Positions 42-55,455 of a DNA stretch of 64,000 nt are shown here, piece by piece. The position numbers and the translations under genes were made by a program. Source of the DNA: a virus; the IMG/VR virus record IMGVR_UViG_3300022917_000010, positions 687-64,686 of that record; one strand, given 5' to 3'. The notes below the pieces were generated by a model. It saw only the letters and a list, made by a program, of their open reading frames with translations. It was not told the DNA's origin and ran no database searches. Numbering within the stretch: position 1 is the first letter of the stretch; every line of letters begins with the position of its first letter.

Positions 42-419
42 TTAGCCGCCGGCCTTGGCGATGCAGACGTATGCGACCTTATCGGCCGCCGTCAGCGATG
101 CCAGGGTGATGGAGGCCGCCGTGACTGCCACCGTATAGGCGCGGCTCGGAACCGTCAGGTTCGTGAACACGCACGAGGGAGCGGTCGCATATGCCCGACC
201 GAAGGTCAGGGTGCAGCCGGTGGCGCCCGTCGCGGTGACATCGCCAGCCATATCGCTTGAGCCGGTGCCGAGCGCACCCGAGCCGCAGGCAGAGACCGCC
301 GGGGCGGAAGCGTTGGCGCCGATGATAAGATCGGTCGTGAGCGTGTAGCCCCACGCCAGCCCCGCCGTGACCACCAAAGCGGCCATGCCCGAGAGCATTT
401 TCGTCCAGATATTCTTCAT
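42..419 (-). CDS. Signal-peptide-bearing small beta-rich virion decoration/fibre-like protein
   Basis: MKNIWTKMLSGMAALVVTAGLAWG signal-like N-terminus; Ala/Thr/Gly-rich mature part with 4 Cys; directly downstream of the capsid genes. Confidence 0.65.
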   Translation of the reverse strand: MKNIWTKMLSGMAALVVTAGLAWGYTLTTDLIIGANASAPAVSACGSGALGTGSSDMAGDVTATGATGCTLTFGRAYATAPSCVFTNLTVPSRAYTVAVTAASITLASLTAADKVAYVCIAKAGG

Positions 420-7114: not shown

Positions 7115-7680
7115 CAGAGTAAAAGCCCCCGCGATCGGTTAAAGTCGATCGGATGCTGCGACCGTTTTCGGATATTACACGGTTTGCACAAACCTTGGAA
7201 ATTGCTTGCCTCGGTGCGGCCGCCGAGCGCCAAAGGCAAGATATGGTCCATTTCCAACTTGGCCTTCGCGCCACACGCCGCGCAGCGCCCGGCCTGCCTA
7301 TCAATAATCGCCCGTATTTCCGCGCCCGTGACTTTGCCGCCGACCGACGCAAGCATTGCGCGCCTATTCAGGTTATAGGTCCGATCAGTATCCGGGTTTT
7401 CCCGCCGCCAGCGCTGCTTGCGCATTTTGATGGCCTCCGGGTTATTCTCTCGATACTGCTTCTGCCACTCCAAAACAGCGGGCCGACGTTTCTGGTATGA
7501 CTTCTTGCAGGCTGCGCGATGCTTAGGGAGATCAGCGCGACGCTTCTCGGCGTTACAATCGACGCAACTGCCGCTGCAGGTAAATCGCTCGGATAGGTGC
7601 CCGTTAACACAAGGCTGCCCAGAGAAATATCTGAGCAGCCCGGCACCCGCGGCAGCTTTCCTCGCGCCCGGAAGCGGCAT
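7114..7680 (-). CDS. HNH endonuclease
   Basis: CAACG...EMDHILPLALGGRTEASNFQGLCKPCNIRK; N-terminal CVNGH...CVDC zinc motif. Confidence 0.9.
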   Translation of the reverse strand: MPLPGARKAAAGAGLLRYFSGQPCVNGHLSERFTCSGSCVDCNAEKRRADLPKHRAACKKSYQKRRPAVLEWQKQYRENNPEAIKMRKQRWRRENPDTDRTYNLNRRAMLASVGGKVTGAEIRAIIDRQAGRCAACGAKAKLEMDHILPLALGGRTEASNFQGLCKPCNIRKRSQHPIDFNRSRGLLL

Positions 7681-32408: not shown

Positions 32409-33047
32409 ATGCGAACCGATTACAGCTACGCGAATTACGCTAGTTGCCCAGACCCATCTCACCGACCTATGTATCTGCAGGCAGTTGATCACTACCTGCG
32501 GCGGAACGCAGTACGTACCGTAATTGACGCCGGCTGCGGCGGGGGAGATTTTACTCAAGGGCTGCACGAAAAGGGCTATCAGGTTTTCGGCGTGGACCTG
32601 AACGAGAGCGCGATAGCCGCGGCACGGCAACGCCAAGCTGGCCAATACCACGTTTCATCCGTCTACGAAGATTTGCGCCAACCGTTTGACCTAGGACCTG
32701 TCGATGCCGTCGTGTCGATCGAGGTGATCGAGCACCTGTATTCGCCACGCGTCTTTATGGACCGGGCCCGTGACGCTCTTCGACCTGGCGGCATCCTGGC
32801 TATCAGCACGCCCTATTGGGGCTACCTCAAGAACGTTGTGCTGGCAGTTTCTAACCGGATGGATCGGGCGCTTAACCCCTGCTGGGACGGAGGCCACATC
32901 AAACATTTCTCGCGCGCGAAGCTGACAGAGATGGCGACCGATCAGGGATTTGAGTTTGTTGCATTCGAAGGCTGTGGCGAGGGTGTCAGATCGTCGCCGT
33001 ACCTCTGGAGCGGGATGCTGATGATCTTTAAGAAGCCGACTGGCTAG
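32409..33047 (+). CDS. Class I SAM-dependent small-molecule/polysaccharide methyltransferase
   Basis: VIDAGCGGG, GVDLNESAI, VSIEVIEHLYSP, LRPGGILAISTPYWGYLKN, GHIKHFSR. Confidence 0.9.
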   Translation: MRTDYSYANYASCPDPSHRPMYLQAVDHYLRRNAVRTVIDAGCGGGDFTQGLHEKGYQVFGVDLNESAIAAARQRQAGQYHVSSVYEDLRQPFDLGPVDAVVSIEVIEHLYSPRVFMDRARDALRPGGILAISTPYWGYLKNVVLAVSNRMDRALNPCWDGGHIKHFSRAKLTEMATDQGFEFVAFEGCGEGVRSSPYLWSGMLMIFKKPTG

Positions 33048-33060
33048 ACCCCGAACTGGG

Positions 33061-35973
33061 TCAGCGCACCAGCGCATCCAGTGATGTTTGCTCCGCTCCG
33101 GTCAAGTCTATGTCAAAGGCCGCCTGAAGTCTGACAGAAGATAGAGCCGCACTTCCGCTTGGGCTAAAAGAGCCGGTCGTCCTGTTATACTGCCCCTGAT
33201 CTGACCCTGACATAAGGGCATTAAGATTTGCGCCGAGGCCGATCTGACCGGTTAGCATATCTGGGGGGTTCAAGTTGGGGCTAGGAATCACAAGCCCGGT
33301 CTGAGCGGAGCCGGCGACGGCGTTGGACCATGCCTTCCAGTCAGTGCCGTCGAACGTACATGCCGCAGTGTTGAATGCAGTTGCAGATGCTGGGGTGGCC
33401 GTGGCGGTCTTTTGCTGTGTCGCATCTGAGAGCAGGCAATTGATCGCGCCCGGTGATCCTGATGTATGAGACAGCATCATTCTATTTGAAAACTGCCCGA
33501 TCGCGAACGGGTTGAACGCCGCGGTCCCGGGCTTTTGGTAAGCTGCGAACAAGGTGATCTTCGTCTTACGGCGGATATTATTTAGGTAGGATCGATCACC
33601 ACCGTAGTAGCCGTATGAGCTGCCTGTTCCGTTTACCCACGCCGGTTTGCCGCCAATACCAGTGGCGTTATAAGTCGTGTTCGCTGTGGTTGGCGTGTAG
33701 TCGCCGCCGCGGGGAAGTCGCGTCGTCCCCATGTCGAAAACCTTGGTGATCACGCTACCGCTCTTGGCAACGCAAAACTCTGGCATCGCGGCGAAAAGCA
33801 GGTTGTTTTTCTTCCCATTGGTTGTCAGCCACGCATAGAAGCTGTCCATCATTGCCTGATTGCAGGTCGTCGCGTCAGCACCTTCTGCCAAAGCTCGCGT
33901 GTAATGCGCATTCACTTCGGGATAGATGGAATTTGAACAATAGGTGCTGACGACTCGATTCTTCTGCTCGACGCCACCGTTGAGGTAGACCAGCTTGTAA
34001 TAGCCCACCGCGTTGAGCGCCATGCCCGTGTATGTCGCGGTGCCTCCTGAGAAGTCGCCAACCAATGTGGCTTGCGAGCCAACGGTGGGGCCGTAGTAAA
34101 GCCGCATCGTATCTGTCGGGGTGACGCCCGTATACCAGTTGATCGTTGCTGTAGAGGACGCGCAACTCGCACGGACGCCCACGGGGGCCGCGCCAGCTGC
34201 TGCTGTGGGGTCAATGATCTCCGTATAGTAATCAAGATTTTGTTGCCAAAGCCCCCCGCAAGATGAACCTGTGATAGTGCCAGAGCCAACAGTCGGGCTG
34301 GTCGTTATCGTATAATCACCAACGCCGTTTGGCGTACCATTTACTTGGTTGACGACGGTGACGTTGCTGCCGCTGGATATCCCGTTGCCGTAGATCAACG
34401 ATCCGATTTGGATCGTACCCGTTCCCAAGGACTGGACTGTCAGCGTCGTACCGCCGGTCGTGAACCCCGTGAATTGGAAATAGCCTTGTTGGCCGTTCAC
34501 GGTAGGATTAGCCGCGCATCCTCCATTGTTGGAATAGGTCGATAGATATGCTTGCGCCCAGAGCCCGTTGCTGATCGGCCAGCCCTTGGCCGCGTAGTAG
34601 TGAGCGATGCCGTCTTCAACATATCCGGTGACAGCTTGCAGGTACGAGGGGCCGGGATAAATGCCTGCGTAGGGTGGCGAGACATTCACAGCTGACGGCG
34701 TGTCGATCACACTCTGACTGCTATTAACTGATGCGCGGCCTACCCATTGATTTCCAATACGGGAAGTACCACTAAACGTACTGATCTTCGCCATTATCCA
34801 TGGCGAGCCACCGACAGAAATGGTGTCTGGTGACTGTAATGGCGCTGCTTGCCGACTGGCACCCGTACAGTCAATTGTCGTGCCAACTTGGGAACTGGCG
34901 GGAAGGCACCAATTCAGATTGGTGGTGCCGGCCACCCAGATATTGCCGTCAGTGCTGGTCCACGTCGACCGCGCAAAAGTATTGCCGTTATAGGGATAGC
35001 CGAACTCATACCCGACAGATTGCCAAACCCCAGCACTGACGCGCTGCACACGTTGAAAGCTCGACCAAGTGCCAAAATTAAGGCCAATATGGGTAGGCTG
35101 AGGACTTGTCCAAGTGACCAAATCCGCAGACTTTATCACTCCCATTTCATGCTGGATGCTGGATGCTTGCCCCTCTGCGTAGAGATAGAAAGGGTACGTA
35201 GCATCATCCGGATTGCAGAGAAGCTGAGCATCATAATAAAGAAAATATCCCGACTGTGTGACCGACATAGTTTGCGAAGCAACGAGTTGCGCCGCGCCGC
35301 CGATGACATAGTCTCCAGTCTGTCCTTGCGTTCCGGTCGATTGAGAGGCGATGACCGCCGTAGTAACGCCAGCGCCTGAGACACTGGCCTGCCCGGCATT
35401 GGTGATAAGACCGGTGTAAGCTGTGACCCTCAGTCTGTTGCCGGGAGCAATTCCAGAAGCGTCCGAGATCGACGCGGTGATTGTCGCCACCACTGGAGAG
35501 GCGGTGACGCCGGACCCGCTGGGATCAGCCGCCGCGTATATGAAATTGGCGCGGGACGGCAACACGCCTGGATCATTGCTGTAGCCGATCCGAAAATCAA
35601 AGCTGCCGTTCCAGACAGCCCCGACACCCGCTCCATGATCCGGGGCAAGTGGCCACGCATAGCGACCGCGCGACGCCGCGATGGCAGCGCCGGCAGCGCC
35701 GCATTCAGGGGCTGTCAGGTCATATGGTCTAAATCCCGAAAGCCCGTTTTGATGATACCAGTCATCGGTAGAGACGGCAGGATTTCCGAGACCGGGCGTG
35801 TAGTTGCCAGTGAAATTATCCCACGCCGATCCGGTCAGGCCGAAGAAGTTCTCCTGGCGAAGGTTCGGATTTGATACCGCCCCAGGCGCATAGGTCTGGA
35901 AAATACCGAACGCGGCATGCGCCAGCCCCGAGAGCAGCAGAAGCAAACAGAGCGCGGCTGATATTCTTTTCAT
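33061..35973 (-). CDS. Large signal-peptide-bearing adhesin/tailspike-like protein with a possible propeller-type domain and a LamG-like C-terminus
   Basis: MKRISAALCLLLLLSGLAHA|AFGIFQTYAP; FYLYAEG...MGVIKSADLVTW; ITLFAAY...NTAACTFDGTDWKAW. Confidence 0.6.
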   Translation of the reverse strand: MKRISAALCLLLLLSGLAHAAFGIFQTYAPGAVSNPNLRQENFFGLTGSAWDNFTGNYTPGLGNPAVSTDDWYHQNGLSGFRPYDLTAPECGAAGAAIAASRGRYAWPLAPDHGAGVGAVWNGSFDFRIGYSNDPGVLPSRANFIYAAADPSGSGVTASPVVATITASISDASGIAPGNRLRVTAYTGLITNAGQASVSGAGVTTAVIASQSTGTQGQTGDYVIGGAAQLVASQTMSVTQSGYFLYYDAQLLCNPDDATYPFYLYAEGQASSIQHEMGVIKSADLVTWTSPQPTHIGLNFGTWSSFQRVQRVSAGVWQSVGYEFGYPYNGNTFARSTWTSTDGNIWVAGTTNLNWCLPASSQVGTTIDCTGASRQAAPLQSPDTISVGGSPWIMAKISTFSGTSRIGNQWVGRASVNSSQSVIDTPSAVNVSPPYAGIYPGPSYLQAVTGYVEDGIAHYYAAKGWPISNGLWAQAYLSTYSNNGGCAANPTVNGQQGYFQFTGFTTGGTTLTVQSLGTGTIQIGSLIYGNGISSGSNVTVVNQVNGTPNGVGDYTITTSPTVGSGTITGSSCGGLWQQNLDYYTEIIDPTAAAGAAPVGVRASCASSTATINWYTGVTPTDTMRLYYGPTVGSQATLVGDFSGGTATYTGMALNAVGYYKLVYLNGGVEQKNRVVSTYCSNSIYPEVNAHYTRALAEGADATTCNQAMMDSFYAWLTTNGKKNNLLFAAMPEFCVAKSGSVITKVFDMGTTRLPRGGDYTPTTANTTYNATGIGGKPAWVNGTGSSYGYYGGDRSYLNNIRRKTKITLFAAYQKPGTAAFNPFAIGQFSNRMMLSHTSGSPGAINCLLSDATQQKTATATPASATAFNTAACTFDGTDWKAWSNAVAGSAQTGLVIPSPNLNPPDMLTGQIGLGANLNALMSGSDQGQYNRTTGSFSPSGSAALSSVRLQAAFDIDLTGAEQTSLDALVR

Positions 35974-38870
35974 GGCAGTTGCTGGTCCGTGCGGAGGGTC
36001 ATGGTCACCTGTGGGCTGTCGGAGGGAGTGTTAGCAGTGAAGATCGGCTGACCATTACCGCCGAACCATGCATCGGTAGGCGGCGCCGTGAGGCTGTCCA
36101 GCGACTGCGTTCCAGTGGCACCAGATGGCGTCAATGTGCGTGTGCCGCCAACAGGCGTCGGCAGTTTGGTGTTGATCATGTTGGTAGCGCCGAACGTAGT
36201 CGTAGTCAGATCGGTCTTGAGCACCTGCCAGTTCGCGAAGCGGGTGACCGTCCAACCCAGTGCGCCGCCGCCCGTAAAAGGCACGTTATTAGTGAAGGTG
36301 AAGGTATCCAACACGCCCCAGATTGTCGGGCTGTAGCCGGGCGTCGAGCCACCCGTCGCACTCCCTGTGTACGTGAAATTCTGACAGGAAAACATCGGCG
36401 CTTGAGCGGGGCATCCATTCAGCGCGAGGGCATTGTTGCCCGACCCGCCCGTGAAGCTGACAGTCAGCTTTGGAGCCGGGTGCGGGAAGATTTTCAGAGA
36501 GTTGGTGGTCCACGCCCCGGTCGGGAAACCGCCTGCCTCGCTGGTCTGTACGTAGGTGTTCACCGTGTCTTGGGTAACGTCCAGAACTTTGAAAAATCTT
36601 CCTGCCTGCGCAACGGTGCCGCCTCCGCCGCCGCCCTGCCACGCAACGTAGTGGCCGGGGACAAGGAGTCGGGTCTGTGTTTCGGCATACTGACAGCACC
36701 CGCTTGCGCTAAAGGCATTCGGAATTGTGATGATGCCGCCTGACATACTCCACGGATGCGACGCTTCGTCGACCTGATCAACCGGGGTGTTCCGGGTAAA
36801 ATCAGGCGTGGTGCAATTCGTGCATATGCTTTCATCCGAAACGCCGTAGGCTAGCGTGCCGACTTGGATGGTGGACGTCGCCGTGCTGTTGGTGATGTTG
36901 AGTTTTTTCGGACTTCCGAACCACGACTCCATGGTCGTGCCGTCAATATTGATCGTGTCAATCGAAGAACTCTGGACGTTGATTTTCTTGATCGAACCGC
37001 CGGTGATGTTCCATGTTCCGACTATTTTGTCGGTCTCAATGCTGCACGTCGAAGCATCAACGTTGATCCAGTTGTGCGTCACATTCTGCGTGGGGATCGC
37101 GCAGTGGACCCCGACCATCTTGGCGTCCCGCCATGTGATGTTGCGGCCGTTCGAGGTGGTCTGGCCGTTCGGGGTGACCAGCGACAAGTCCTTAAATTCG
37201 ACTGTGGTCTCCCACGTCGGATCAAGGACGTAGATCGTCGCCGGGCCACCTTGGTCTACCTCGAAAACATTCCGCCCCGTGTTGTATTGCGGCCATGTGT
37301 CCTTGTAGAGATTTGCGAACGGCGCATCGACGCAGACCTGATGCGTCGTGGAGTTTACAGAGACCACCGTTCGATATTCGAACCAGTGCGGATTGCTGGG
37401 ATAGCTGTATGGCGCCCCGTAATATGCCTGATTGGCCCAACCCCCGACCATGATCTTCGATCCAACCGGGAATAGGGCCGTCCGATCGCCGCCGCCCGTT
37501 CCCCCGCTGGTATAGGCCCCGTCGAACGTCATCTGGAATAGATCGACGTCGGTCCCGTTGATGACCTTGATCCAAAACAAGCCGTTTGAGCGCTGGGGAA
37601 GGAGCCCCTGCCCGACGATGTTGTTCAGAAACAGGGTGTCGCCGGTGGTGAGGCCCGTTGTCGAATTGAGGGAGACCCGAATATTGCCCTGAGACTGATA
37701 CTTCCCGCTCCCGCCTGACGTGGTGCGATTGCTAAGTTGATAGGTGCCGGCACCGCCCGGGGTGCCGGCGATCTGCGACACAATGTTCGTCGGCGCGCTG
37801 GTGCTAGCCCCGGTGCCATTCCATGAACCGCCGCCATAGACCACCTGCCCGACCGCAAGAACGCCGTCCTCGACCGAGGTTACGGTTAGAACGCCCGTAT
37901 TGGCCGCGATGCTGCCAGTATAGGACGCTGGCGCGGTGTAAGTGGCCTGCAAGGCGAAAGAGACCGACGCCGACATTGCATAGGTGCCAGTACCCCCAAC
38001 GCCCGTGGTCCCGGCGGTGCCGTATGGCTGCACCGTATTGAACGAACCGGCATTACTGGTTGCGTTGCCGATGATTGCTCCGGGGACGATCGTACCGGAC
38101 GTAATCGAGTTGACCGTCATCGTGGTCCCAGACGATGACGCTGAGAACCGCGCGGTGGAGGCGAAGCTCGGCTGAATGCCCGTCACCGTGACAGCGGGGG
38201 GTGTCTTTAGAGTAATGCAGCTATCGCCCGGATTAATGGTGTCCGTACGATTGCTATGGAAAGCGTCGTTGAACTGCCCGGAGCCGCCCAGCAGCATGCC
38301 ACCGGCAAGGCTCGAAATCCCCGAAGTCGCCGAACCATTCCCGGCCACCACAAGGTCGCCAATCCCCTTGAACGGGAACTGCTGAGCGCTGGTTATCCCA
38401 CAGAACCCAGGCAGATTGAGCTGCACCGGCGTCGTGCCTTGGTAGGCAGCCTTGAACGCCGTGTAGGCCGCCGTGGCGTCCGTTGCCCATACCAAATCAG
38501 CGGCCTGCGCCGTCTTTGGTGTCGAGATATCGCTGCCGACAACGATGTTCTGCGCGTTTGTGAAACTCGCAATCGTGCCCGTGTAGGTGCTGCCACCCGC
38601 GCCGACGCCGCCGATTGCGATTGTCTTACCGACGTCACCGCTGGAAAATATGCTGAGGCTGGAGAAAACGTTCCGGTTGCCGGTCCCGTTCGTGGTTATG
38701 GTGGGGCTGGCGTACTGACCGTCGCATACCGCGCCATAATCAGAGACGAGGTTTTTCTGCACCCGCGATGGAGCGGATGGCGCATAAGTCTGAAAGATGC
38801 CGAACGCCGCGTAGGCGCTCGACGTGATCAGCAGAGCGGCAAGGGCGGATAGGAACCTGCGCATGATCAT
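35970..38870 (-). CDS. Large signal-peptide-bearing tailspike/beta-helix-like protein
   Basis: MRRFLSALAALLITSSAYA|AFGIFQTYAP; KNLVSDYGAVCDG...TDATAAYTAF tailspike-type start; FCCH-like segment GDTLFLNNIVG...GAYTSGG. Confidence 0.65.
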   Translation of the reverse strand: MIMRRFLSALAALLITSSAYAAFGIFQTYAPSAPSRVQKNLVSDYGAVCDGQYASPTITTNGTGNRNVFSSLSIFSSGDVGKTIAIGGVGAGGSTYTGTIASFTNAQNIVVGSDISTPKTAQAADLVWATDATAAYTAFKAAYQGTTPVQLNLPGFCGITSAQQFPFKGIGDLVVAGNGSATSGISSLAGGMLLGGSGQFNDAFHSNRTDTINPGDSCITLKTPPAVTVTGIQPSFASTARFSASSSGTTMTVNSITSGTIVPGAIIGNATSNAGSFNTVQPYGTAGTTGVGGTGTYAMSASVSFALQATYTAPASYTGSIAANTGVLTVTSVEDGVLAVGQVVYGGGSWNGTGASTSAPTNIVSQIAGTPGGAGTYQLSNRTTSGGSGKYQSQGNIRVSLNSTTGLTTGDTLFLNNIVGQGLLPQRSNGLFWIKVINGTDVDLFQMTFDGAYTSGGTGGGDRTALFPVGSKIMVGGWANQAYYGAPYSYPSNPHWFEYRTVVSVNSTTHQVCVDAPFANLYKDTWPQYNTGRNVFEVDQGGPATIYVLDPTWETTVEFKDLSLVTPNGQTTSNGRNITWRDAKMVGVHCAIPTQNVTHNWINVDASTCSIETDKIVGTWNITGGSIKKINVQSSSIDTINIDGTTMESWFGSPKKLNITNSTATSTIQVGTLAYGVSDESICTNCTTPDFTRNTPVDQVDEASHPWSMSGGIITIPNAFSASGCCQYAETQTRLLVPGHYVAWQGGGGGGTVAQAGRFFKVLDVTQDTVNTYVQTSEAGGFPTGAWTTNSLKIFPHPAPKLTVSFTGGSGNNALALNGCPAQAPMFSCQNFTYTGSATGGSTPGYSPTIWGVLDTFTFTNNVPFTGGGALGWTVTRFANWQVLKTDLTTTTFGATNMINTKLPTPVGGTRTLTPSGATGTQSLDSLTAPPTDAWFGGNGQPIFTANTPSDSPQVTMTLRTDQQLP

Positions 38871-39781
38871 CCGCCGATGATCCGGCCGCCACCGCCGCCG
38901 CTAAGAGATGGAGGAGTGATGGTGATGTTGCTCGCGCGACCATAGTCAATAGAATTGGTTGCCGTGATGCCGTTGGTGACCGCCGTCACGTCGCGGAATG
39001 AACAATAATTGCATGTAGCCCCGCCTCCGCTCAGGGTGAGCGTCACGCTATTGTTTGGTGCAGTTGTTGCAAAACCTGTCCAAGCGTTGACGCCCCCACC
39101 TGAAAATACAAGCGACCCCGTGACCGTCCAGTTGGTGGCATTTGAAAAAATGAGATAGTTTGGGGCCTGAATATTGAAGGTGCCAATCGTGGGGCTACTA
39201 CCTTGCATACTAGTAGCGCCGCCTACAGCCGTTCCTTGCAGAGTCACAACATTGTATGTGAAGGTGCCAAGGTTCATTGTTACTGTTTGATTTTGTGCAA
39301 CGCCTGCAATCGAACGAACCGTTGATGTATTCGCGTTAAAGGTGAGGTTGGTGGCTCCATTCTGATTCCAGCCGCTGCCGCCGCCAGTATTGCCGACCGT
39401 CCAAGTGCTGGCGCCAAGATTTAGAGTTCGCGTCCCGGCTCCGGTGTTCGCTAAGTTGCCAATGTCAACTGACGCGGTATCGCCAGAATTACCAAGCGTG
39501 CCGGTAAACAGATTCATTGTGAGCGTGCCAACCGTCCAGTTGACGTTGCGCGTGATTGTGCCGCCGCCAGAGGATGCATCGAACGTGGCCGTGTCCGCTC
39601 CGGAGTTGGGCCAGCCGCCTGCCGCCGCGCAAGTGCTGGCGCTGCCACCCGTAGCATTTGACCATTTCGTGGTGTCGTTGATATTGCCGGTGCCGCCGAC
39701 CCAGAAACATGCAGCAGCATTGGCGACATTCGGCGCCCAGCACGCGAGCGCGAGAAGGAAAAGGCCGAAGAGTTTGTTCAT
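38867..39781 (-). CDS. Signal-peptide-bearing beta-solenoid-like protein
   Basis: MNKLFGLFLLALACWAPNVANA|AACFWVGGTGNINDTTKWS; Thr/Asn/Gly repeats; ends GGGGGRIIGG. Confidence 0.65.
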   Translation of the reverse strand: MNKLFGLFLLALACWAPNVANAAACFWVGGTGNINDTTKWSNATGGSASTCAAAGGWPNSGADTATFDASSGGGTITRNVNWTVGTLTMNLFTGTLGNSGDTASVDIGNLANTGAGTRTLNLGASTWTVGNTGGGSGWNQNGATNLTFNANTSTVRSIAGVAQNQTVTMNLGTFTYNVVTLQGTAVGGATSMQGSSPTIGTFNIQAPNYLIFSNATNWTVTGSLVFSGGGVNAWTGFATTAPNNSVTLTLSGGGATCNYCSFRDVTAVTNGITATNSIDYGRASNITITPPSLSGGGGGRIIGG

Positions 39782-39791
39782 GGCGATGCCC

Positions 39792-40925
39792 TCACGGTGC
39801 CTGGACGTATTTGAGAACGCCAGCGAGCGGCGTTGCAGCGGATGTAATTAGGCATAGACCGACGTTTGTTCCTGCCGTCTGCGCGACGGCGACCTTGCCG
39901 CCGGCCTGCAGAAAGATTCCGCTGTTGGCCGCGAAGTTCGGCCCGTTGGCTGCGGTAGTGCCGCCGATGACACCCGCCGTGCCGGTGCCGCAGGTGCCGC
40001 CCGTGCCCTCGACGATGCCGATGTTGTCCGCCGCCGCCGATGTCAGGAACAGCGAACAAATGTAGGTCTTGTTGCTTGCGGATGCCGCGACAATTTGAGT
40101 CGTGGTTGCCGTCGTAATGCTGATCGGCAACGATGTCTGGAGGTTGGCTTCGCAGGGGTCGATGATGGCATTCCGCGTGCCGTCACCAGATCGAGATGGG
40201 AGCGGAGTTGCCGCCGCGACGCCGACAAGATTGCCGCCAGAGTTGAACCCGAAGTAATTGGCATTGGCTGGAACAGCCGCCGCCGTAGCGCCGAGGCCCC
40301 AGTTCGCCGCGGTGCCCGGATTGCTCAGGAACGGCGTCATGGATGCGATACCCTGCACCGTGACGACTTCCGTCGATGCCGTGCCAGCCGTGCCCACAGC
40401 CGCGCCTGCGACCGTCGAGCCGGTACCGGAGTTCTTGGCAATGGCCACCGGCGACGAGCTGGCGAGAGCCGCCTGCCCGTTCGCGTTGGTATTGCTCACA
40501 ACAACCGTTGGATAGCCATTCGCGCTGCACTGCACCGCGGAACCTTGGCCGTTCGTCAGCGTGATCGGCGTCGAATTATAGATGCACCCCGTAAGCAGCG
40601 AATTGGACGCGGCGGTGCCGGCAGCGACCGTTCCCCTCATTGTGAGGAGATCGACCCAGGAACCCGCAGCGAAGGCCCCGGACAGGAACGACCCGCTGGC
40701 AAACGCGCTGGCCGCCCCCTGAATGAACAGAGGCGATCCGCTAACGCCGATCTGCGTGCCAGTGGCATTGACCAATGCGTGCCCCGGCGCCTGCACCCCC
40801 GACCCGACATCCACCGACCTCATCGTGACCCCGCTACCCGGCGTCAAGACAATTGCGTTGTCGGCCGCGACCGCGGCAGAGGCCCACAAGGAGCCGATCA
40901 GAAGAATTGAGAGAAGCTTTTTCAT
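39792..40925 (-). CDS. Signal-peptide-bearing fibre-like protein
   Basis: MKKLLSILLIGSLWASAAVA|ADN; Ala/Gly/Thr-rich shaft; C-terminal beta-sandwich with 4 Cys. Confidence 0.65.
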   Translation of the reverse strand: MKKLLSILLIGSLWASAAVAADNAIVLTPGSGVTMRSVDVGSGVQAPGHALVNATGTQIGVSGSPLFIQGAASAFASGSFLSGAFAAGSWVDLLTMRGTVAAGTAASNSLLTGCIYNSTPITLTNGQGSAVQCSANGYPTVVVSNTNANGQAALASSSPVAIAKNSGTGSTVAGAAVGTAGTASTEVVTVQGIASMTPFLSNPGTAANWGLGATAAAVPANANYFGFNSGGNLVGVAAATPLPSRSGDGTRNAIIDPCEANLQTSLPISITTATTTQIVAASASNKTYICSLFLTSAAADNIGIVEGTGGTCGTGTAGVIGGTTAANGPNFAANSGIFLQAGGKVAVAQTAGTNVGLCLITSAATPLAGVLKYVQAP

Positions 40926-40935
40926 GACCGTTTTC

Positions 40936-41109
40936 CTAGAGAGCCCCGATATACTGGCTGTTGCAGGCTTGCGAAAAATCGAGAGTGTTGGAGCATCCCC
41001 CACCGCCGCCAGAACCAGACCTGCCGGGGCCGGGGAACGGGAAGAACTGTGCGAGCGCCGCGCCCGCCCACGCCGCCAATGCGAGCGCCAAAACCAACCG
41101 CTTTATCAT
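40936..41109 (-). CDS. Secreted mini-peptide
   Basis: MIKRLVLALALAAWAGAALA|QFFPFPGPGRSGSGGGGGCSNTLDFSQACNSQYIGAL; 4-nt overlap with the upstream gene. Confidence 0.65.
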   Translation of the reverse strand: MIKRLVLALALAAWAGAALAQFFPFPGPGRSGSGGGGGCSNTLDFSQACNSQYIGAL

Positions 41110-41960
41110 CGCGTAACCCTCCAATTGAGGGTGACAGCGCCTGGCGTGATCGAGGATGAGGTCGGGTTGCAAACCTTGAAGTTGACGTTGTTGGCGGTCG
41201 GATATGGATATATCGCCAGCCCGCCCGTCGTCACCGGCGCGTATCCCGTCACCGCGGTAATGTCAGCGTTGGGTGTGAAACTGATCGTGTCGGTCGTGGC
41301 CGTGTTCGTGGCGGTAGCCGTGACCGCCGTGGCGCACGCCCCCGACGTGATCGCGCTGGTCCCAAGGACCGCCGTCCCTGCAGCGATGGTCTGCGTCGAC
41401 CCGCCAGCCGCAGAAACAGCCGCAGCGAGTTGAGCTGCCACACCAGTCCCGAGGCCGGTAATGCCCGCAATCGGCAGTCCCGTGACGTTGGTCAAGGTGC
41501 CACTGGAAGGCGTCCCGAGGGCCCCGTTAAAGAGAACCGGCGCGCCCGCGGACCCGATATTGACCGCCAGCGCCGTCGCGACGCCAGTGCCCAAGCCCGT
41601 GATGCTGCCGATCGCCGGCGTGCAGGTCGCCGCGGAGATCGCCGTCGTGAGCCCCTTCGCGTTCTGCGTGGTGGTGATGCACGACGTTGCGCTGCCGAAG
41701 GTGCCGACGTTCGCGTTCACCGTGGCGAGGGTAAGAGCGCCCAGCCCCGTGGCTGCGGCGTCCCCCGACATCAGGCCGTAGACATAAGCGGCGTTCTGCG
41801 CCGCGGTCCCCTTCCGATCAGCGCCGCCCTGCACCACGTAGAACAGTTCGGTGCCACCAAGCGCGCTGGCCGCAGTCAGCGCCGTGACGGTGCTATCAGC
41901 CGCTTTGGCCGGCGACAGGAGAGCCAAAAGGCCCGCCGCGATCAGTAAATGACGTCGCAT
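41106..41960 (-). CDS. Signal-peptide-bearing fibre-like protein
   Basis: MRRHLLIAAGLLALLSPAKA|ADSTVTALTAASALGGTELFYVVQGG; ITGLGTGVA repeated twice. Confidence 0.7.
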   Translation of the reverse strand: MRRHLLIAAGLLALLSPAKAADSTVTALTAASALGGTELFYVVQGGADRKGTAAQNAAYVYGLMSGDAAATGLGALTLATVNANVGTFGSATSCITTTQNAKGLTTAISAATCTPAIGSITGLGTGVATALAVNIGSAGAPVLFNGALGTPSSGTLTNVTGLPIAGITGLGTGVAAQLAAAVSAAGGSTQTIAAGTAVLGTSAITSGACATAVTATATNTATTDTISFTPNADITAVTGYAPVTTGGLAIYPYPTANNVNFKVCNPTSSSITPGAVTLNWRVTR

Positions 41961-42187
41961 CAGCAGCCTCCCGCGCGGCAAACCTTACTCGCGCCATCGG
42001 TTTGAAGAAGAAAGGAAGTGTCATCGACGAGGAGGATCTTGCCAGTCGGGACTGGAACCGAGCCGCCCGGCGTCGTCACGCCCGGGCCATTGATACCGCC
42101 CGGGCAGAACCCGCGGCCGCATTTGTTGAATTGGGCGAACGCCGCCCCTGAAAGAACCAGCAAAATTAGCACAATGAAAGTTTTCAC
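41960..42187 (-). CDS. Secreted mini-protein
   Basis: GTG start MKTFIVLILLVLSGAAFA|QFNKCGRGFCPGG...KVCRAGGC. Confidence 0.6.
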   Translation of the reverse strand: MKTFIVLILLVLSGAAFAQFNKCGRGFCPGGINGPGVTTPGGSVPVPTGKILLVDDTSFLLQTDGASKVCRAGGC

Positions 42188-42225: not shown

Positions 42226-42804
42226 ATGAAACTTTGCCAAATCGCCGGATGCGGCGGGAAGCACCAGGCGCACGGCCTGTGCGACAAGCATTATCGCCGC
42301 TTCCGCCACCATGGCGATACAAACCTCAGAGCGCCGGCCATCGACCAGTTCTGGTCTAAAGTAGATCAATCTGGCGGCCCCGATTCCTGCTGGCCTTGGC
42401 AGCAGTCCACAGATAGCGGCGGATATGGCGCGGCATGGGATGGCGAAAAGAGGTGGAAATCTCACCGACTGGCTTGGACGCTGACTAATGGAGTCATCCC
42501 CGATGGGGTTGATGTGCTCCACCATTGCGACAACCCGCCATGCTGCAACCCATCCCATCTTTGGCTTGGGAAAGATTTGGACAATATCGTCGATTGCATC
42601 AGCAAGGGCAGATATAACCGACAGCGAGGCGATGATCGGCCAAATAGTAAAATTACCGAGGCACAAGCCCGAGAGATATTGTTTATTTGGGGACAAGATG
42701 GCCGCCCGACGCTGCGCGAGATCGGAGACCGCTACGGCATAGCGATTTCTACCGTACACGGGCTGGTCACGCGGCAAAGGTGGAAGCACCTCGATAATCA
42801 TTGA
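42226..42804 (+). CDS. HNH homing endonuclease inserted in inverted orientation
   Basis: FWSKVD...CWPW...SHRLAW...VLHHCDNPPCCNPSHLWLG...NIVDCISKGR. Confidence 0.92.
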   Translation: MKLCQIAGCGGKHQAHGLCDKHYRRFRHHGDTNLRAPAIDQFWSKVDQSGGPDSCWPWQQSTDSGGYGAAWDGEKRWKSHRLAWTLTNGVIPDGVDVLHHCDNPPCCNPSHLWLGKDLDNIVDCISKGRYNRQRGDDRPNSKITEAQAREILFIWGQDGRPTLREIGDRYGIAISTVHGLVTRQRWKHLDNH

Positions 42805-43154
42805 CGCTCACACGAATACCGATCGCCAGTGCCGGCGGATATAATCGACGCCGTGCTTATCGTGGGCCCGTTGACATCGCTGAAAAAAGAGCCGCCGGCC
42901 GCCGTGCCCGACCCAGGTTGAAGGGTCCAAGATCCCGCCCCGCAATTCGTGCCCGCGATCGTCGCCGCCACTCCGCTGAATGAAACGCACATCAGATTCG
43001 CGGAATTGTTCATCAGCATGAGCTTGCGGACGTTCGAACTCGTAAATATCGTCTGCGCCGTCCCGCCCGTCGTGATCGTCCCCGAGCAATCCGTGGCAAA
43101 TGCCGCGCCGCACCACAAAACCGTAGCCAGAAACGCCGCAATAAATCGCATCAT
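42798..43154 (-). CDS. Signal-peptide-bearing small beta-rich protein
   Basis: MMRFIAAFLATVLWCGAAFA|TDCSGTITTGGTAQ; 4 Cys in the mature part. Confidence 0.7.
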   Translation of the reverse strand: MMRFIAAFLATVLWCGAAFATDCSGTITTGGTAQTIFTSSNVRKLMLMNNSANLMCVSFSGVAATIAGTNCGAGSWTLQPGSGTAAGGSFFSDVNGPTISTASIISAGTGDRYSCERQ

Positions 43155-43389: not shown

Positions 43390-44001
43390 CTAGCCTCCCA
43401 AAGCGCGGTCTACCGACCAGCCCCTCTTCAATCGGCCATGGACACACGCATAATGGAGCCCAGCCAGATCAGCCGCCTCCGCCAAACACATATCCCGGCC
43501 TCGAAAGTTGACGATTCTATTCGACCGCCGATTCCTTGCCTGATCTACCCACGTAGCCCACCGGCAATTTGACGGTTCGTAATTCCCATCGTTATCAGGG
43601 AACCTATCAAGCGTGTGCGCCTCAGAGGGGCGGCGTCCCATATCTTCAAGGAAATTGTTAAAATCATCCCACCGCTCACAAACCGTAATGCCACGGCCGC
43701 CGTAGTCGGCATAATGCCTCCCATCAACATTCCGGCAGCGCTCCCGCATCTGCTGCCAAATAACGTGCTCAGTGGACACCGCGCCACCACGGGCGTCGCC
43801 GTGAACGATTTGAGATCGGCAAATCTCAGAATGAGCGCACCCGCACGAGGTCGTGTTGCCGCGCCGCAAATTGCTCCCGATAACAATGCACTCATTACCG
43901 CAATCGCATTTGCAGAGCCATTTCGTATACCGGCCAGCCGGCACTCGCCGCACTACTCGAAGGCGCGAAAATACCTGCCCAACATGATCTTTAACCTCCA
44001 T
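43390..44001 (-). CDS. HNH-like homing endonuclease
   Basis: KWLCKCDCGN...TTSCGC...WQQMRERC...YGGRGITVCERW...TLDRFPDNDGNYEPSNCRWAT. Confidence 0.9.
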   Translation of the reverse strand: MEVKDHVGQVFSRLRVVRRVPAGRYTKWLCKCDCGNECIVIGSNLRRGNTTSCGCAHSEICRSQIVHGDARGGAVSTEHVIWQQMRERCRNVDGRHYADYGGRGITVCERWDDFNNFLEDMGRRPSEAHTLDRFPDNDGNYEPSNCRWATWVDQARNRRSNRIVNFRGRDMCLAEAADLAGLHYACVHGRLKRGWSVDRALGG

Positions 44002-46038: not shown

Positions 46039-46398
46039 TTAGCCCGTCGCGGCCACGTCGACGATCGATATCGTCGCGCCCCGCGCCCATTGGAAAATAT
46101 TCTCGCCCTGCAACTTCGGAGACTGCGCGCTGGCAACCCGCGAATTCGACGCCGATGGGCCGTTGAGATTGATTTCGTACCGGATCGCCTGGCCGACCTC
46201 GACCTCGATCACGCACATCACGGCATCGTCCGGCGACTGCACCACGCTGGGAACGGGCGTGGCGCCGTTCGTGGTCAGCATCTGCTTCCAGAGGTACGGT
46301 TCCTGCCGGACGAACACGGAATCGGCGTTGTGGAATTTGAGCAGCCGCTGCTCGATTTGGACAATCCCGCTGTAACCCCACATGCGAACTAAGGCCAT
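46039..46398 (-). CDS. Hypothetical protein
   Basis: 119 aa directly upstream of terL. Confidence 0.6.
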   Translation of the reverse strand: MALVRMWGYSGIVQIEQRLLKFHNADSVFVRQEPYLWKQMLTTNGATPVPSVVQSPDDAVMCVIEVEVGQAIRYEINLNGPSASNSRVASAQSPKLQGENIFQWARGATISIVDVAATG

Positions 46399-46400
46399 TT

Positions 46401-46919
46401 CTAAACTCCCGAGTATTCGCCATGCATGCAGGCTGCTGCGATGCGATAGGCTGCTGCCGCCATCTCAGCGGTCGGATATAGCCCAAGCTGATATCGCACA
46501 CCGTCAGCGCTGATCCTACACCAATACGCATTCTGCTGCGGATGCTTTGTAACGCCCTTGAACCCGCATTTATTATGCTTCCGAACCGTCTGGTTCATGC
46601 AATTTTTCTTCGTTGTGGTGTCTCGCAGGTTGCCAATCCTGTCATTTGCCTGATCGCGATCGCGGTGATCCACTTCGCCCGATGGCCACATGCCCTTGTG
46701 CATAAGCCACACCACATGAGTCTGAGGGACGCGACCGCCGGGAATCCTGACGGTTTTTCGACCCCTCGTGACGGAATAGGCTCTATCGCCTATTTGGACG
46801 CCCCTCCCAGGCTCAATACGCCAATACAGATCGCCGGTCAGCGTATCGTATCGGAAGCGCGAGCGCGCCATCTCAGCGGTGAATCCGATTCGCAATGATG
46901 TCCGGACAGGGCTCCCCAT
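46401..46919 (-). CDS. HNH homing endonuclease with AP2-like domain
   Basis: YDTLTGDLYW, THVVWLMHKGMWPSGEVDHRDRDQANDRIGNLR, KGVTKH...QLGLYPTAEMAAAAY. Confidence 0.9.
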   Translation of the reverse strand: MGSPVRTSLRIGFTAEMARSRFRYDTLTGDLYWRIEPGRGVQIGDRAYSVTRGRKTVRIPGGRVPQTHVVWLMHKGMWPSGEVDHRDRDQANDRIGNLRDTTTKKNCMNQTVRKHNKCGFKGVTKHPQQNAYWCRISADGVRYQLGLYPTAEMAAAAYRIAAACMHGEYSGV

Positions 46920-51928: not shown

Positions 51929-53191
51929 TTAGAATTCGATAGCTATGCAAGTAGCGTTGCTAATTATCAGCGTGTTCGCACTCGTTAGTCGCGACAGATC
52001 AAACCAATACTGCGTTGCCAGCGAGAGCCCGGTAACAACAGCCCTTAGAGATATGGGGACAGAACCGCTGGCGACAGCAAAGGCCGTCGCTAACGACGTA
52101 CTCGCCTGAGTGCCAGTAACCGCCACGTTCGCTGCCGGTGCCGCGCCGCTCCCGTATCGCAGATCGAATGTGCCGGTATTCGGCACCGTATTGTTGGATG
52201 CGACAAATTGAATGGTGATATCCATTCGGCCATTGAGGACCGGCGTCAAAGTACATCCGTTTTGACCAAACCCCGACATCACCCCCGTAGCCGATGTGGT
52301 GTTAGCCGGGGAGGCCGGGCTTACCTGCACCACCGCGTTAGTGAATGCCCGCGCTACGGTGCATGTACCCGTCACAGTGATCGTGCAGGTTCCAGTAACC
52401 GTGATGCCATTGCCAGCGGCGACCTGCGCGCTGGTTACCGTTCCGGTTCCAGGCAGCGTCCACGACGGAATACCAGAAGCATCTTCCTGCAGAACCCGCG
52501 TGCCAGAGTTATTGCCAGCAAGGCAGACCCAATTCGTGCCGTTGTAATAGACCAGATCACCGGCGCGCGTCGGTGGGCAGTTATGCGCTGCGTTCTGGAG
52601 CCCCTGCTGCGTACCAGCACCGGAGCCGCCCCGCGCGACCGATAGCGTCCCGGTCCAACCCAGCGTAATCGATGCCGCGTTCACCAGCGCGACCGTCGGG
52701 CTGCCGCCGAGCGTCGCAGTCACGTTCGTATCGTCGGTTTTCGTCAGCGCCGCACCAGTGCCCCATGCCGGGCATGCTCCCACGCCGCCCGAGCGCAGCA
52801 CCTGCCCAGTCGCGACGTCCGCAATTCGGGAAAGCGTCGTGGTGCCGGTCGCGCACAGGATATCGCCTATGGCATAGACGTTCAGGCCAGTCCCGCCTCC
52901 AACGATACCCAAGACCGCATAGCCGGGATCCGCGCCAGCGCCGGAACTCACCCAAGGCAGCCCCGCCGTACCAGGCCCGACGATCGCCCAGCCGGACGCG
53001 CCGCGCTCAATGATGGCTCCGCGGGTCGACCCCAGCGCGCGGTCAAGGATCGCAGTAACGGTCTCCGCGCGCGCCGGCCGTGTCGCCGCTGACGAGTTGC
53101 CCATAACCTGACCAGCAGCAGGCTGTGATTGCGCGTGCGCGCCCCCGGCCAGCGCCAGCCAAGCGACTGCCGCGAATACCGCCCTTCTCAT
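51929..53191 (-). CDS. Signal-peptide-bearing tail fibre
   Basis: MRRAVFAAVAWLALAGGAHA|QSQPAAGQV; fibre repeats GGTG, GDIL, GQVL, GTVTS; 8 Cys. Confidence 0.7.
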   Translation of the reverse strand: MRRAVFAAVAWLALAGGAHAQSQPAAGQVMGNSSAATRPARAETVTAILDRALGSTRGAIIERGASGWAIVGPGTAGLPWVSSGAGADPGYAVLGIVGGGTGLNVYAIGDILCATGTTTLSRIADVATGQVLRSGGVGACPAWGTGAALTKTDDTNVTATLGGSPTVALVNAASITLGWTGTLSVARGGSGAGTQQGLQNAAHNCPPTRAGDLVYYNGTNWVCLAGNNSGTRVLQEDASGIPSWTLPGTGTVTSAQVAAGNGITVTGTCTITVTGTCTVARAFTNAVVQVSPASPANTTSATGVMSGFGQNGCTLTPVLNGRMDITIQFVASNNTVPNTGTFDLRYGSGAAPAANVAVTGTQASTSLATAFAVASGSVPISLRAVVTGLSLATQYWFDLSRLTSANTLIISNATCIAIEF

Positions 53192-53640
53192 GATTCCACC
53201 TCGTAACCATCGCCGGCCAGTTTCGGCTTGAACGTCTTCGCGTCGTAAGCATCGACCATCGGGTAGGACGCCAACCCATCAATCAGTTCAGCCGCCGTCC
53301 GATTGACCGAAATACCGTTTGGATTGGCGTTTATCGCCTTCACGGTGAGCGGCCTATTGGTACGGGATACCGCGGCCGCTGTCTGAATGACCACCGCGCC
53401 GCCTGTCGTATCGACCTCGAGAAGATAATCCGTCGGCAACACCGTATATGGCGACATGGCAAAGTTGACCGCCGTCGGCACGACCGCTGCCGGCGTGACC
53501 GAGGCCGTAACCACGTTGGCCTGCACCGCCTCGATCGCACGCTGGACGTCGATCGCGGCCACGCCGGGCGACGGGCTATAGGAAACATTCCTCGCCGCAG
53601 CGATCGGAGAAACCCGCAGATCGGTTTGAATGACTGACAT
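53188..53640 (-). CDS. Tail fibre adaptor/short structural protein without signal peptide
   Basis: Start MSVIQTD at 53640; ATDVQAAI-like AIDVQRAIE; YTVLPTDYLLEVDTTGGAVVI. Confidence 0.6.
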   Translation of the reverse strand: MSVIQTDLRVSPIAAARNVSYSPSPGVAAIDVQRAIEAVQANVVTASVTPAAVVPTAVNFAMSPYTVLPTDYLLEVDTTGGAVVIQTAAAVSRTNRPLTVKAINANPNGISVNRTAAELIDGLASYPMVDAYDAKTFKPKLAGDGYEVES

Positions 53641-54731
53641 CACAAAATCCGCAGGTAAGGGATAAGCCCGATCGTCGGCATCACAAAAGGTGTTGCCGCC
53701 CCGCTCGTATTGTTCGACGTGACCGCGATTGCGTTTGATCCACTGAAAGACCATGAGTTCGCTAATACACCGCCAGTCGGACCCGACGTGGCGCCAGCAG
53801 TGTTCACACTCGGGTTGATAATTCCATTGCCATACATGAAGCCCGTATTTGGGCCTGAGACCGTGATGCTGTTGGCCCCGTTTGATGTGATCCCAGTCGG
53901 GAGTTGCGCAAGCGTCAGCGCCCTCCCTTCGACACCATTGGCGCAGACAGCGCCCACCAATGTCATGGCTGTTCCGCAGCCAGTCGCCGCATTCGTTAGG
54001 CGGAAAGCGGAATTCCCATTGAGAGTATCCAGCGCTGCCACCACGCGCCCCCGCATGTCGATGATGGCGAACTGCCCGCCGGGGCACCCGCCACTCGCAG
54101 GGAACCCCTGCTGCGCCCAATAGGCTGCGTAAGTCGTCGTCGAAATGCACTGCCCCGACGGCGCCACAAAATTGCTGCTGGGAGGCAGCGTCGACGTTGA
54201 CCACAGAATACCGCCCAGCGGCGTCCCGGTATTGCCATAACCGGCCTCGAGCAGCCACGCGCTATTCGACGCGCTGAATGCCACCCGATAGGGTGAACCA
54301 GAGATCAGCGCCCCGGCCGGAATTGTCGTTCCGCTAAGCCAGAGCGGATACGCAGTTCCACCATCCACCTGCAACGTCGGGGCCGCCCCGCTGGTCACAT
54401 GCGCGATAAAGGACAGCATCTGACCATTGACCGGCGTGGTGTTGACGCCTTCCAGCGTCGCCAGAGCATAAGCGGTAGACGTTCCGGTCGTGGTATTCGC
54501 CCCGCTGATATCCGACCGCCACGCGGCCAGCACCGCCATCATGGCGCGCGCTGAATCATTCACCGCCGACGGCGCCATGCCCTCCGCCCAATTGATCGAC
54601 GGATCGGCAGTCGCGTTCGTTGAGGCCGTAGTCGACCACTGCCAGATCGCCGCTTTCAGGCTGCCTGCGCCCAGCGCCACCGATATCGACAGAACAGCGA
54701 GGACGAGAAATTCAATTGTCCGACGTCGCAT
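53640..54731 (-). CDS. Tail fibre with tail-collar domain, preceded by a signal peptide
   Basis: MRRRTIEFLVLAVLSISVALGAGSLKA|AIWQWSTTASTNATADPSINWAEG; collar-like PLGGILW...PSGQCISTTTYAAYW...FAIIDMRGRV. Confidence 0.75.
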   Translation of the reverse strand: MRRRTIEFLVLAVLSISVALGAGSLKAAIWQWSTTASTNATADPSINWAEGMAPSAVNDSARAMMAVLAAWRSDISGANTTTGTSTAYALATLEGVNTTPVNGQMLSFIAHVTSGAAPTLQVDGGTAYPLWLSGTTIPAGALISGSPYRVAFSASNSAWLLEAGYGNTGTPLGGILWSTSTLPPSSNFVAPSGQCISTTTYAAYWAQQGFPASGGCPGGQFAIIDMRGRVVAALDTLNGNSAFRLTNAATGCGTAMTLVGAVCANGVEGRALTLAQLPTGITSNGANSITVSGPNTGFMYGNGIINPSVNTAGATSGPTGGVLANSWSFSGSNAIAVTSNNTSGAATPFVMPTIGLIPYLRIL

Positions 54732-54732
54732 T

Positions 54733-55455
54733 TTACACCCCAATTCCGTATGCCTTGGCCAGCGCCGCGGCGATCTGTTGACTTTGCCCCATCATCGGCT
54801 GGGGCATCTGGATATTTTGCAGCGGCGCATATTCAGGCTGCTGCGGTGCCGCTGGTTGCCCGCCCTGCGACGGATTCAGCGCCGACGCCAACTTGTCGAG
54901 GGCCGACGGTGCCGGCGCGCCCGACCCGACCGCTGGAACCTCCGTAACCGTCGAGGTTGGGTTGATCGGACTGACCGGATCGACCGGCATGGCCTTGGCC
55001 GCCAGAGCGCCCACCGGTGCATCGACGCCGAGCAGCTTCGCAGCCGTGCTCATGTGGCCGGTCATTTGGGAATTCACCTTGTCGGCGACCGTGCCAGGCA
55101 TGCCGCCGTTCGCCGTGTCGCTGCGGTTATACAGCCCCGGCGCGCCGGCGTTGATCGTCGAATAGATATCCATGAGGCCCATGCCGGGCTTTACGCCGCG
55201 GTCGCGCAGGAAGTTCTCGACCGCCTGCATCTGTTCCGGTGCGGTCTGGCCCTCTTTCACGCCGTATTTCGCGCGCTCAGCCTCGCCGAATTGGATAAGC
55301 CCCAGATGATTGTTATTTTTGCCGCCCCAGAGGTTCGGATCGAACTTCCCGCCCGTCTCATAGGAGATCGCCGTGCCTATATGCAGCGGGTCTACCCCGA
55401 GCCGCTTCGCGGAGGCTATGATGGCCGCAGCCAGTTCCGGGTTCATGGAGGCCAT
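54733..55455 (-). CDS. Virion-associated lytic transglycosylase-like ejection protein
   Basis: ISYETGGKFDP...GLIQFG...DIYSTINAG lysozyme-like fold. Confidence 0.7.
   Translation of the reverse strand: MASMNPELAAAIIASAKRLGVDPLHIGTAISYETGGKFDPNLWGGKNNNHLGLIQFGEAERAKYGVKEGQTAPEQMQAVENFLRDRGVKPGMGLMDIYSTINAGAPGLYNRSDTANGGMPGTVADKVNSQMTGHMSTAAKLLGVDAPVGALAAKAMPVDPVSPINPTSTVTEVPAVGSGAPAPSALDKLASALNPSQGGQPAAPQQPEYAPLQNIQMPQPMMGQSQQIAAALAKAYGIGV

Follow-up and report, generated by a model that had tools for sequence, protein, structure and literature searches.

Gene content of the locus

The window, i.e., the whole stretch of 64,000 nucleotides that was analyzed, covers nearly all of a 65-kb phage contig from leaf-litter metagenomes. 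Its capsid protein was closest to that of Rhizobium phage RHph_Y1_10 (50%), and the host is probably an alphaproteobacterium. Between the terminase gene and the end of the late operon, eight genes were found whose products carry predicted signal peptides and even numbers of cysteines, and these module genes gave no Pfam, PHROG or isolated-phage match. Because disulfides are present in the virions of phage 7-7-1 (PMC12796354), even cysteine counts are no proof of periplasmic folding.

All eight genes lie on the minus strand. The first encodes a small exported TDCSG-type protein (42798-43154), the positional equivalent of a head-spike base; it matched only viral protein clusters, and its link to head spikes is by position and through the relative L152 described below. 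It is followed by adaptor 1 (75 aa, 41960-42187), with a QFNxC N-terminal tag and an LLxD-type C-terminal tag, by an exported extension stalk of 284 aa (41106-41960) that ends in an FKVCN domain, and by adaptor 2 (57 aa, 40936-41109), in which a PGPG-type N-terminal tag, reading QFFPFPGPG, is joined by a glycine linker to a two-cysteine C-terminal tag. The exported stalk/hub protein (377 aa, 39792-40925) consists of a putative adaptor-binding N-terminal domain, mosaic fibre repeats and a C-terminal globular domain starting from about 40166; a segment of its stalk (40437-40478) contains the motif SSPVAIA and is a candidate socket on the evidence of covariation. The first tip is an exported beta-solenoid of 304 aa (38867-39781) with a flexible C-terminal linker and an RIIGG tail, for which Foldseek returned nothing at E 0.001.

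The two remaining genes encode the large tip proteins B (966 aa, 35970-38870) and A (970 aa, 33061-35973), each with a signal peptide and 12 cysteines. Protein A contains an Fn3-like domain, and no Pfam or PHROG family matched it. The model of B is of beta-helix type, and its best Foldseek matches were capsule depolymerases and GH110 (E 2e-5, with TM-scores under 0.2). Binding of glycans by the two tips is a reading of ours, and the label "adhesin" likewise derives from fold and context. A class I SAM methyltransferase gene (32409-33047, plus strand) faces the end of A, where relatives carry acyltransferases or other cargo.

Outside the module, signal peptides also occur on decoration-like and tail-fibre genes of the window (42-419, 51929-53191 and 53640-54743, minus strand) and of L113 (209-667). 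A signal-less protein of 119 aa (46039-46398, minus strand) resembles by eye the exported bases of L107, L006 and L009, and the genome may hold in it a second, cytoplasmic base-like protein. HNH-type endonuclease genes are scattered among the virion genes (42226-42804 on the plus strand; 43390-44001, 46401-46919 and 7114-7680 on the minus strand), one of them sitting between the base and adaptor 1.

An identical N-terminal tag on A and B

The decapeptide AFGIFQTYAP directly follows an AxA-type signal peptide in both A (signal peptide of 20 residues, tag at 35884-35913, minus strand) and B (21 residues, 38778-38807, minus strand), with cleavage sites placed, and export predicted, by a simple heuristic rather than a trained predictor. 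The alanine at position -1 is also common to both, giving 11 identical residues in all. AlphaFold modelled mature B with a pLDDT of 92, and residues 1-10 were the sole stretch under 50; in this model the tag is a conserved peptide outside the fold of B.

Synonymous differences between A and B were found in 5 of the 10 tag codons, for which full saturation expects 5.4, and the residues next to the tag were identical at only 4 of 12 positions on the signal-peptide side and 2 of 12 on the linker side. Contigs from a second leaf-litter run, assembled independently, spanned both tag sites with zero differences, which rules out an assembly artefact. Apart from the N-terminus, BLASTP between the two proteins found a single short insert in common (34% over 59 aa, E 4e-5). 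The preliminary description of two unrelated 970-aa adhesins sharing a mature decapeptide is therefore accurate as to the peptide, the flanks and most of the bodies, but B has 966 aa and the 59-aa insert is common to both. Given the saturated codons, the differing flanks and the little similarity of the bodies, the identity of the tag is old and kept by selection.

The peptides encoded at 40936 and 41960 do start with QF, as had been pointed out, but they are no copies of the AFGIFQ tag; the idea that they are the same tag was rejected, since they belong to two other types, PGPG and QFNxC, which form links in the chain and would use other sockets. The gene after an FKVCN domain was PGPG-tagged in 29 of 36 cases versus 0 of 103 background genes, and QFNxC followed a TDCSG domain, this being either a base or a stalk end, in all 5 cases.

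Conservation and classes of the tag among relatives

Homologs were collected as 78 A-family and 64 B-family clusters, and the motif was conserved in 25 and 33 of these proteins, respectively. AFGIFQ-like motifs behind signal peptides thus recur in related phages, and what the preliminary description had set against its own proposal, an unconserved motif left by a recent local duplication, was not observed, the motif being conserved and its codons saturated. Only AFxIFQT is conserved whereas YAP varies, and this core is invariant within class 1 in part because of how the search pattern was built. Mature N-termini fell into a few classes common to the A and B families, namely class 1 (AFxIFQT, AYFQxQT and kin), class 2 (RFPRG, WFKHG and kin) and a minor third exported class (LGTVGG). 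Both families swap among these three classes; signal-less homologs of A and B begin with a SASANG-type peptide. Two more bodies, again unrelated, are headed by the same tag in L087, and as AFAIFQT it occurs on a 54-aa adaptor of L152, upstream of a tailspike-like gene. Because a profile search with signal peptide plus tag gave 13 representatives that were mostly kin of A and B, the count of unrelated tagged bodies is a lower bound. At the DNA level, the exact pattern of the full decapeptide had no match in viral contigs, and a shorter pattern had 11, of which 5 were real tags.

In 12 B homologs, a pro-segment of 20 residues separates the signal peptide from the tag. Its conserved sequence (HVxxVPF..IGSLxD) precedes all three exported tag classes and ends in a second AxA-like site; carriers are P0012, P0022-P0024, P0044 and P0056 as well as L092, L106 and L155. 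Given these pro-segments and the analogous N-terminal tag of signal-less relatives, a free mature N-terminus may not be required.

Other features of the relatives were noted in passing. Some B, A-like and solenoid homologs (P0018, P0035, P0061 and P0202; L156) carry a C-terminal tag, LLKRDLDP..NDN.P.W, and the A-like tip encoded at L157:7830-10487 combines a signal peptide with a SASxNG-type tag, which is otherwise found on signal-less proteins. The gene at L152:10162-10530, after the AFAIFQT adaptor, encodes a tailspike-like N-terminus and starts with a signal of twin-arginine-like type; frame changes seem to split this gene. Homologs of B also occur on Bradyrhizobium chromosomes in glycosyltransferase/polysaccharide loci (L108/L162, L164-L166), possibly having been captured from phages; the McL0615 copy retains pro-segment and tag, the other chromosomal copies are without a tag, and the tagged homolog stands alone in its polysaccharide locus, without the chain.

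Tag class follows the genome

On the B body tree, which was a quick-search tree, tag class changed 13 times versus a shuffled mean of 12.6, and on the A body tree (FastTree, last 400 residues) it changed 11 times versus 17.4, i.e., with some clustering. The two tags of a genome nevertheless matched in class in 14 of 14 genomes with two tagged tips (1 in 10^6 shuffles), and a 15th such genome, fetched later, matched too (15/15, the shuffle covering the first 14); the pair P0033/P0090 was left out of these counts. Different codons were used at 49 of 90 identical tag residues in 11 gene pairs, and in the signal-less L105 and L158 both large tips again had one common N-terminal tag. As judged from these sequences, tag class tracks the genome and not the protein body. 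Because classes match genome by genome despite changing on the body trees, the most economical explanation is a single partner, encoded in that genome, which both tags have to fit.

A candidate socket in the stalk

The sister phages L104 and L170 differ in tag class. Identity between them is 88-98% for terminase, base, adaptor and the two ends of the hub; differences are confined to the hub middle (28%) and the solenoid (35%). Among hubs, SP[VI][VIA] was present in 11/11 of class 1 and 0/11 of class 2, and PxGxN in 0/11 of class 1 and 10/11 of class 2. Eight later cases fit this pattern, with the motif present in L087, L101 and L048 and absent from L173, L033, L023, L050 and L015. The motif SP[VI][VIA] was, however, tuned by hand and extends across two different fibre repeats, and unbiased searches for motifs in the hubs gave p values of 0.17 and 0.03 under statistics that ignore kinship; the stalk motif is therefore a candidate and not a result. 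We tentatively regard the motif in 39792-40925 as the best socket candidate for AFxIFQT on these comparisons, at somewhat less than an even chance. A complex prediction with three copies of the hub residues, the solenoid tail and the tag returned a score of 0.00, which is no answer and counts neither for nor against.

The tag may instead be a docking plug whose socket lies elsewhere, in the base, the first tip or a capsid protein, or may associate with other tags, which we consider a serious but somewhat unlikely explanation. Its attraction is that the tip tag of the signal-less L105 resembles an adaptor tag expected to bind the base, and that the evidence for the hub motif is correlative. Yet genomes with this tag have at least four types of base and several unrelated first tips, some tag-bearing genomes are without a beta-solenoid, and sisters of different class keep 94-98% identity in base and adaptor. 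Base type, first-tip type, beta-solenoid subtype and the tail-fibre domain varied without regard to tag class. Base and beta-solenoid were rejected as sockets, as was the tail-fibre C-domain, which is absent from other class-1 genomes.

Proposed assembly and its alternatives

The order base, adaptor, stalk, first tip and tagged tips recurs in relatives, and in different genomes the module adjoins P22-portal, E217-like, SU10-portal and HK97-type head genes. The exported base of L152, the AFAIFQT phage, is homologous to RcGTA Rcc01079 (E 2e-6), and the L105 base is a weak match to it. L105 and L158 have the same module layout with zero signal peptides, and a complete 42-kb relative has just five exported module proteins. 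Capsid genes and unknown genes with signal peptides have been reported from Porphyromonas phages (PMC10367356).

From these data, AFxIFQT is probably a selected, portable docking tag, a putative plug, in a chain of separately exported parts. The parts would be exported and cleaved, and the chain would run from the spike base (42798) through an adaptor, the extension stalk and a further adaptor to the stalk/hub (39792) and its three tips, each part being joined to the preceding one by short end peptides. The first tip would probably plug into the C-terminal domain of the hub, and A and B, with their common tag, would both enter one further kind of site, which most likely lies in the fibre segment of the hub. 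With a tag in common, two different glycan-binding tips could use one socket, and a new tip would need only the matching tag. The whole assembly would form a spike on the head, and there is about an even chance that its parts join virions when lysis mixes periplasm and cytoplasm. The original proposal of a plug that would fit interchangeable modules into one socket is partly supported, by the genome-wise matching of tags and by the gene chain. It has to be given up for the QF peptides with their other sockets, and its beta-strand addition is a possible mode of docking.

Tailed virions are built in the cytoplasm, and every part of the module bears an export signal. The tags could therefore join parts of a complex that stays off the virion, such as a periplasmic, surface or released decoy, or an exclusion or capsule-modifying complex of the infected or lysogenic cell, and B homologs do lie in bacterial polysaccharide loci. 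We consider this unlikely, as the module lies within virion gene blocks of several head types, that of L152 starts with a head-spike-base homolog, the counterparts in L105 and L158 have the same layout without signals, and the tail-fibre and decoration-like genes of this genome carry signals as well.

It is more unlikely still that host machinery reads the tag for sorting or processing and that the match within a genome reflects the host. The tag always adjoins the signal peptide, the pro-segment is closed by a second AxA-like site, and a lone chromosomal homolog has retained the tag, all of which would suit such a signal; other exported proteins of the same genomes, however, are without the tag, very close sister phages have different classes, signal-less relatives have an equivalent common tag, and the other chromosomal homologs are tagless. 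That the identity is a relic of gene conversion of the 5' end, or of a local duplication in the recent past, is hardly credible. A and B are adjacent, and new tips may arrive more easily by recombination at the tag, but the saturated synonymous sites and the differing signal peptides and linkers refute such a relic as sole cause, and the tag is conserved over dozens of clusters.

The docking-tag reading can be extended to a more speculative proposal, which we put forward as rather improbable in its full form: a widespread group of soil phages would carry branched head spikes that are wholly Sec-exported and assembled outside the cytoplasm by a small code of tags and sockets. AFxIFQT would dock on the SP[VI] motif of the stalk, phages would exchange a tag along with its socket, and capsids would receive their spikes no earlier than lysis. 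If this is right, tailed phages can draw on a periplasmic pool to complete their outer fibres, and tag-socket pairs predict from sequence where unannotated proteins hang on the particle.

Comparison with known systems

Peptide plugs for receptor-binding proteins are already known from a few cultured phages; we found no description in the literature of the module, of tags behind export signals, or of tag classes that track the genome. In chaperone-usher and type V pili, exported subunits are joined after processing by short terminal peptides in donor-strand assembly. No homology to these pili was found, and the models of B and the beta-solenoid are complete without the tag. Donor-strand assembly relies on an acceptor with an incomplete Ig-like fold that a strand of the neighbour completes.

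Branched receptor-binding complexes have been described for G7C and the KP32/KP34 viruses (PMC6872550), which resemble the present module in their modular branching by conserved peptides and in offering one anchor for several receptor-binding proteins. They differ in that their parts are not exported and have T4 gp10-like tail domains, and no such domains were identified in the window. For a T7 gp17-like adapter with a T4 gp10-like domain, there was no Pfam or PHROG match in hub or stalk, and none in isolated phages.

The tailspikes of K1-5, K1E and SP6 attach to the gp37 adapter by hepta- or undecapeptides, and in K1-5 one tailspike peptide sits on the middle of the adapter and another on its C-terminal part (PMC6872550, citing Leiman 2007). 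There, as in A and B, a short conserved N-terminal peptide heads otherwise unrelated proteins, those of the cultured phages being of depolymerase type, and a socket in the hub middle would parallel the middle site of the K1-5 adapter. Those tailspikes, however, are cytoplasmic, belong to the tail and have a single tag for each spike, whereas the tags of A and B follow signal peptides and the two tips have one tag in common; moreover, the peptide sequences are unrelated and the scaffold here is head-spike-like.

The RcGTA head spike consists of the base Rcc01079 and the fibre Rcc01080 (PMC7296036; PDB 6TB9), and a pentamer of the base at the capsid vertices holds the flexible polysaccharide-binding fibre by its residues 2-10 (PMC7296036). 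That spike has two genes, no export signal and a fibre attached directly to the base, whereas the chain in the window would comprise eight exported parts, adaptors and stalks among them, and use several tags. The alternating Leu-Gly start of the RcGTA fibre is missing from A and B, which start AFGIFQT; tags of alternating hydrophobic residues and glycine do occur on adaptors of relatives, and the likeness to RcGTA lies in the homology of the L152 base to Rcc01079.
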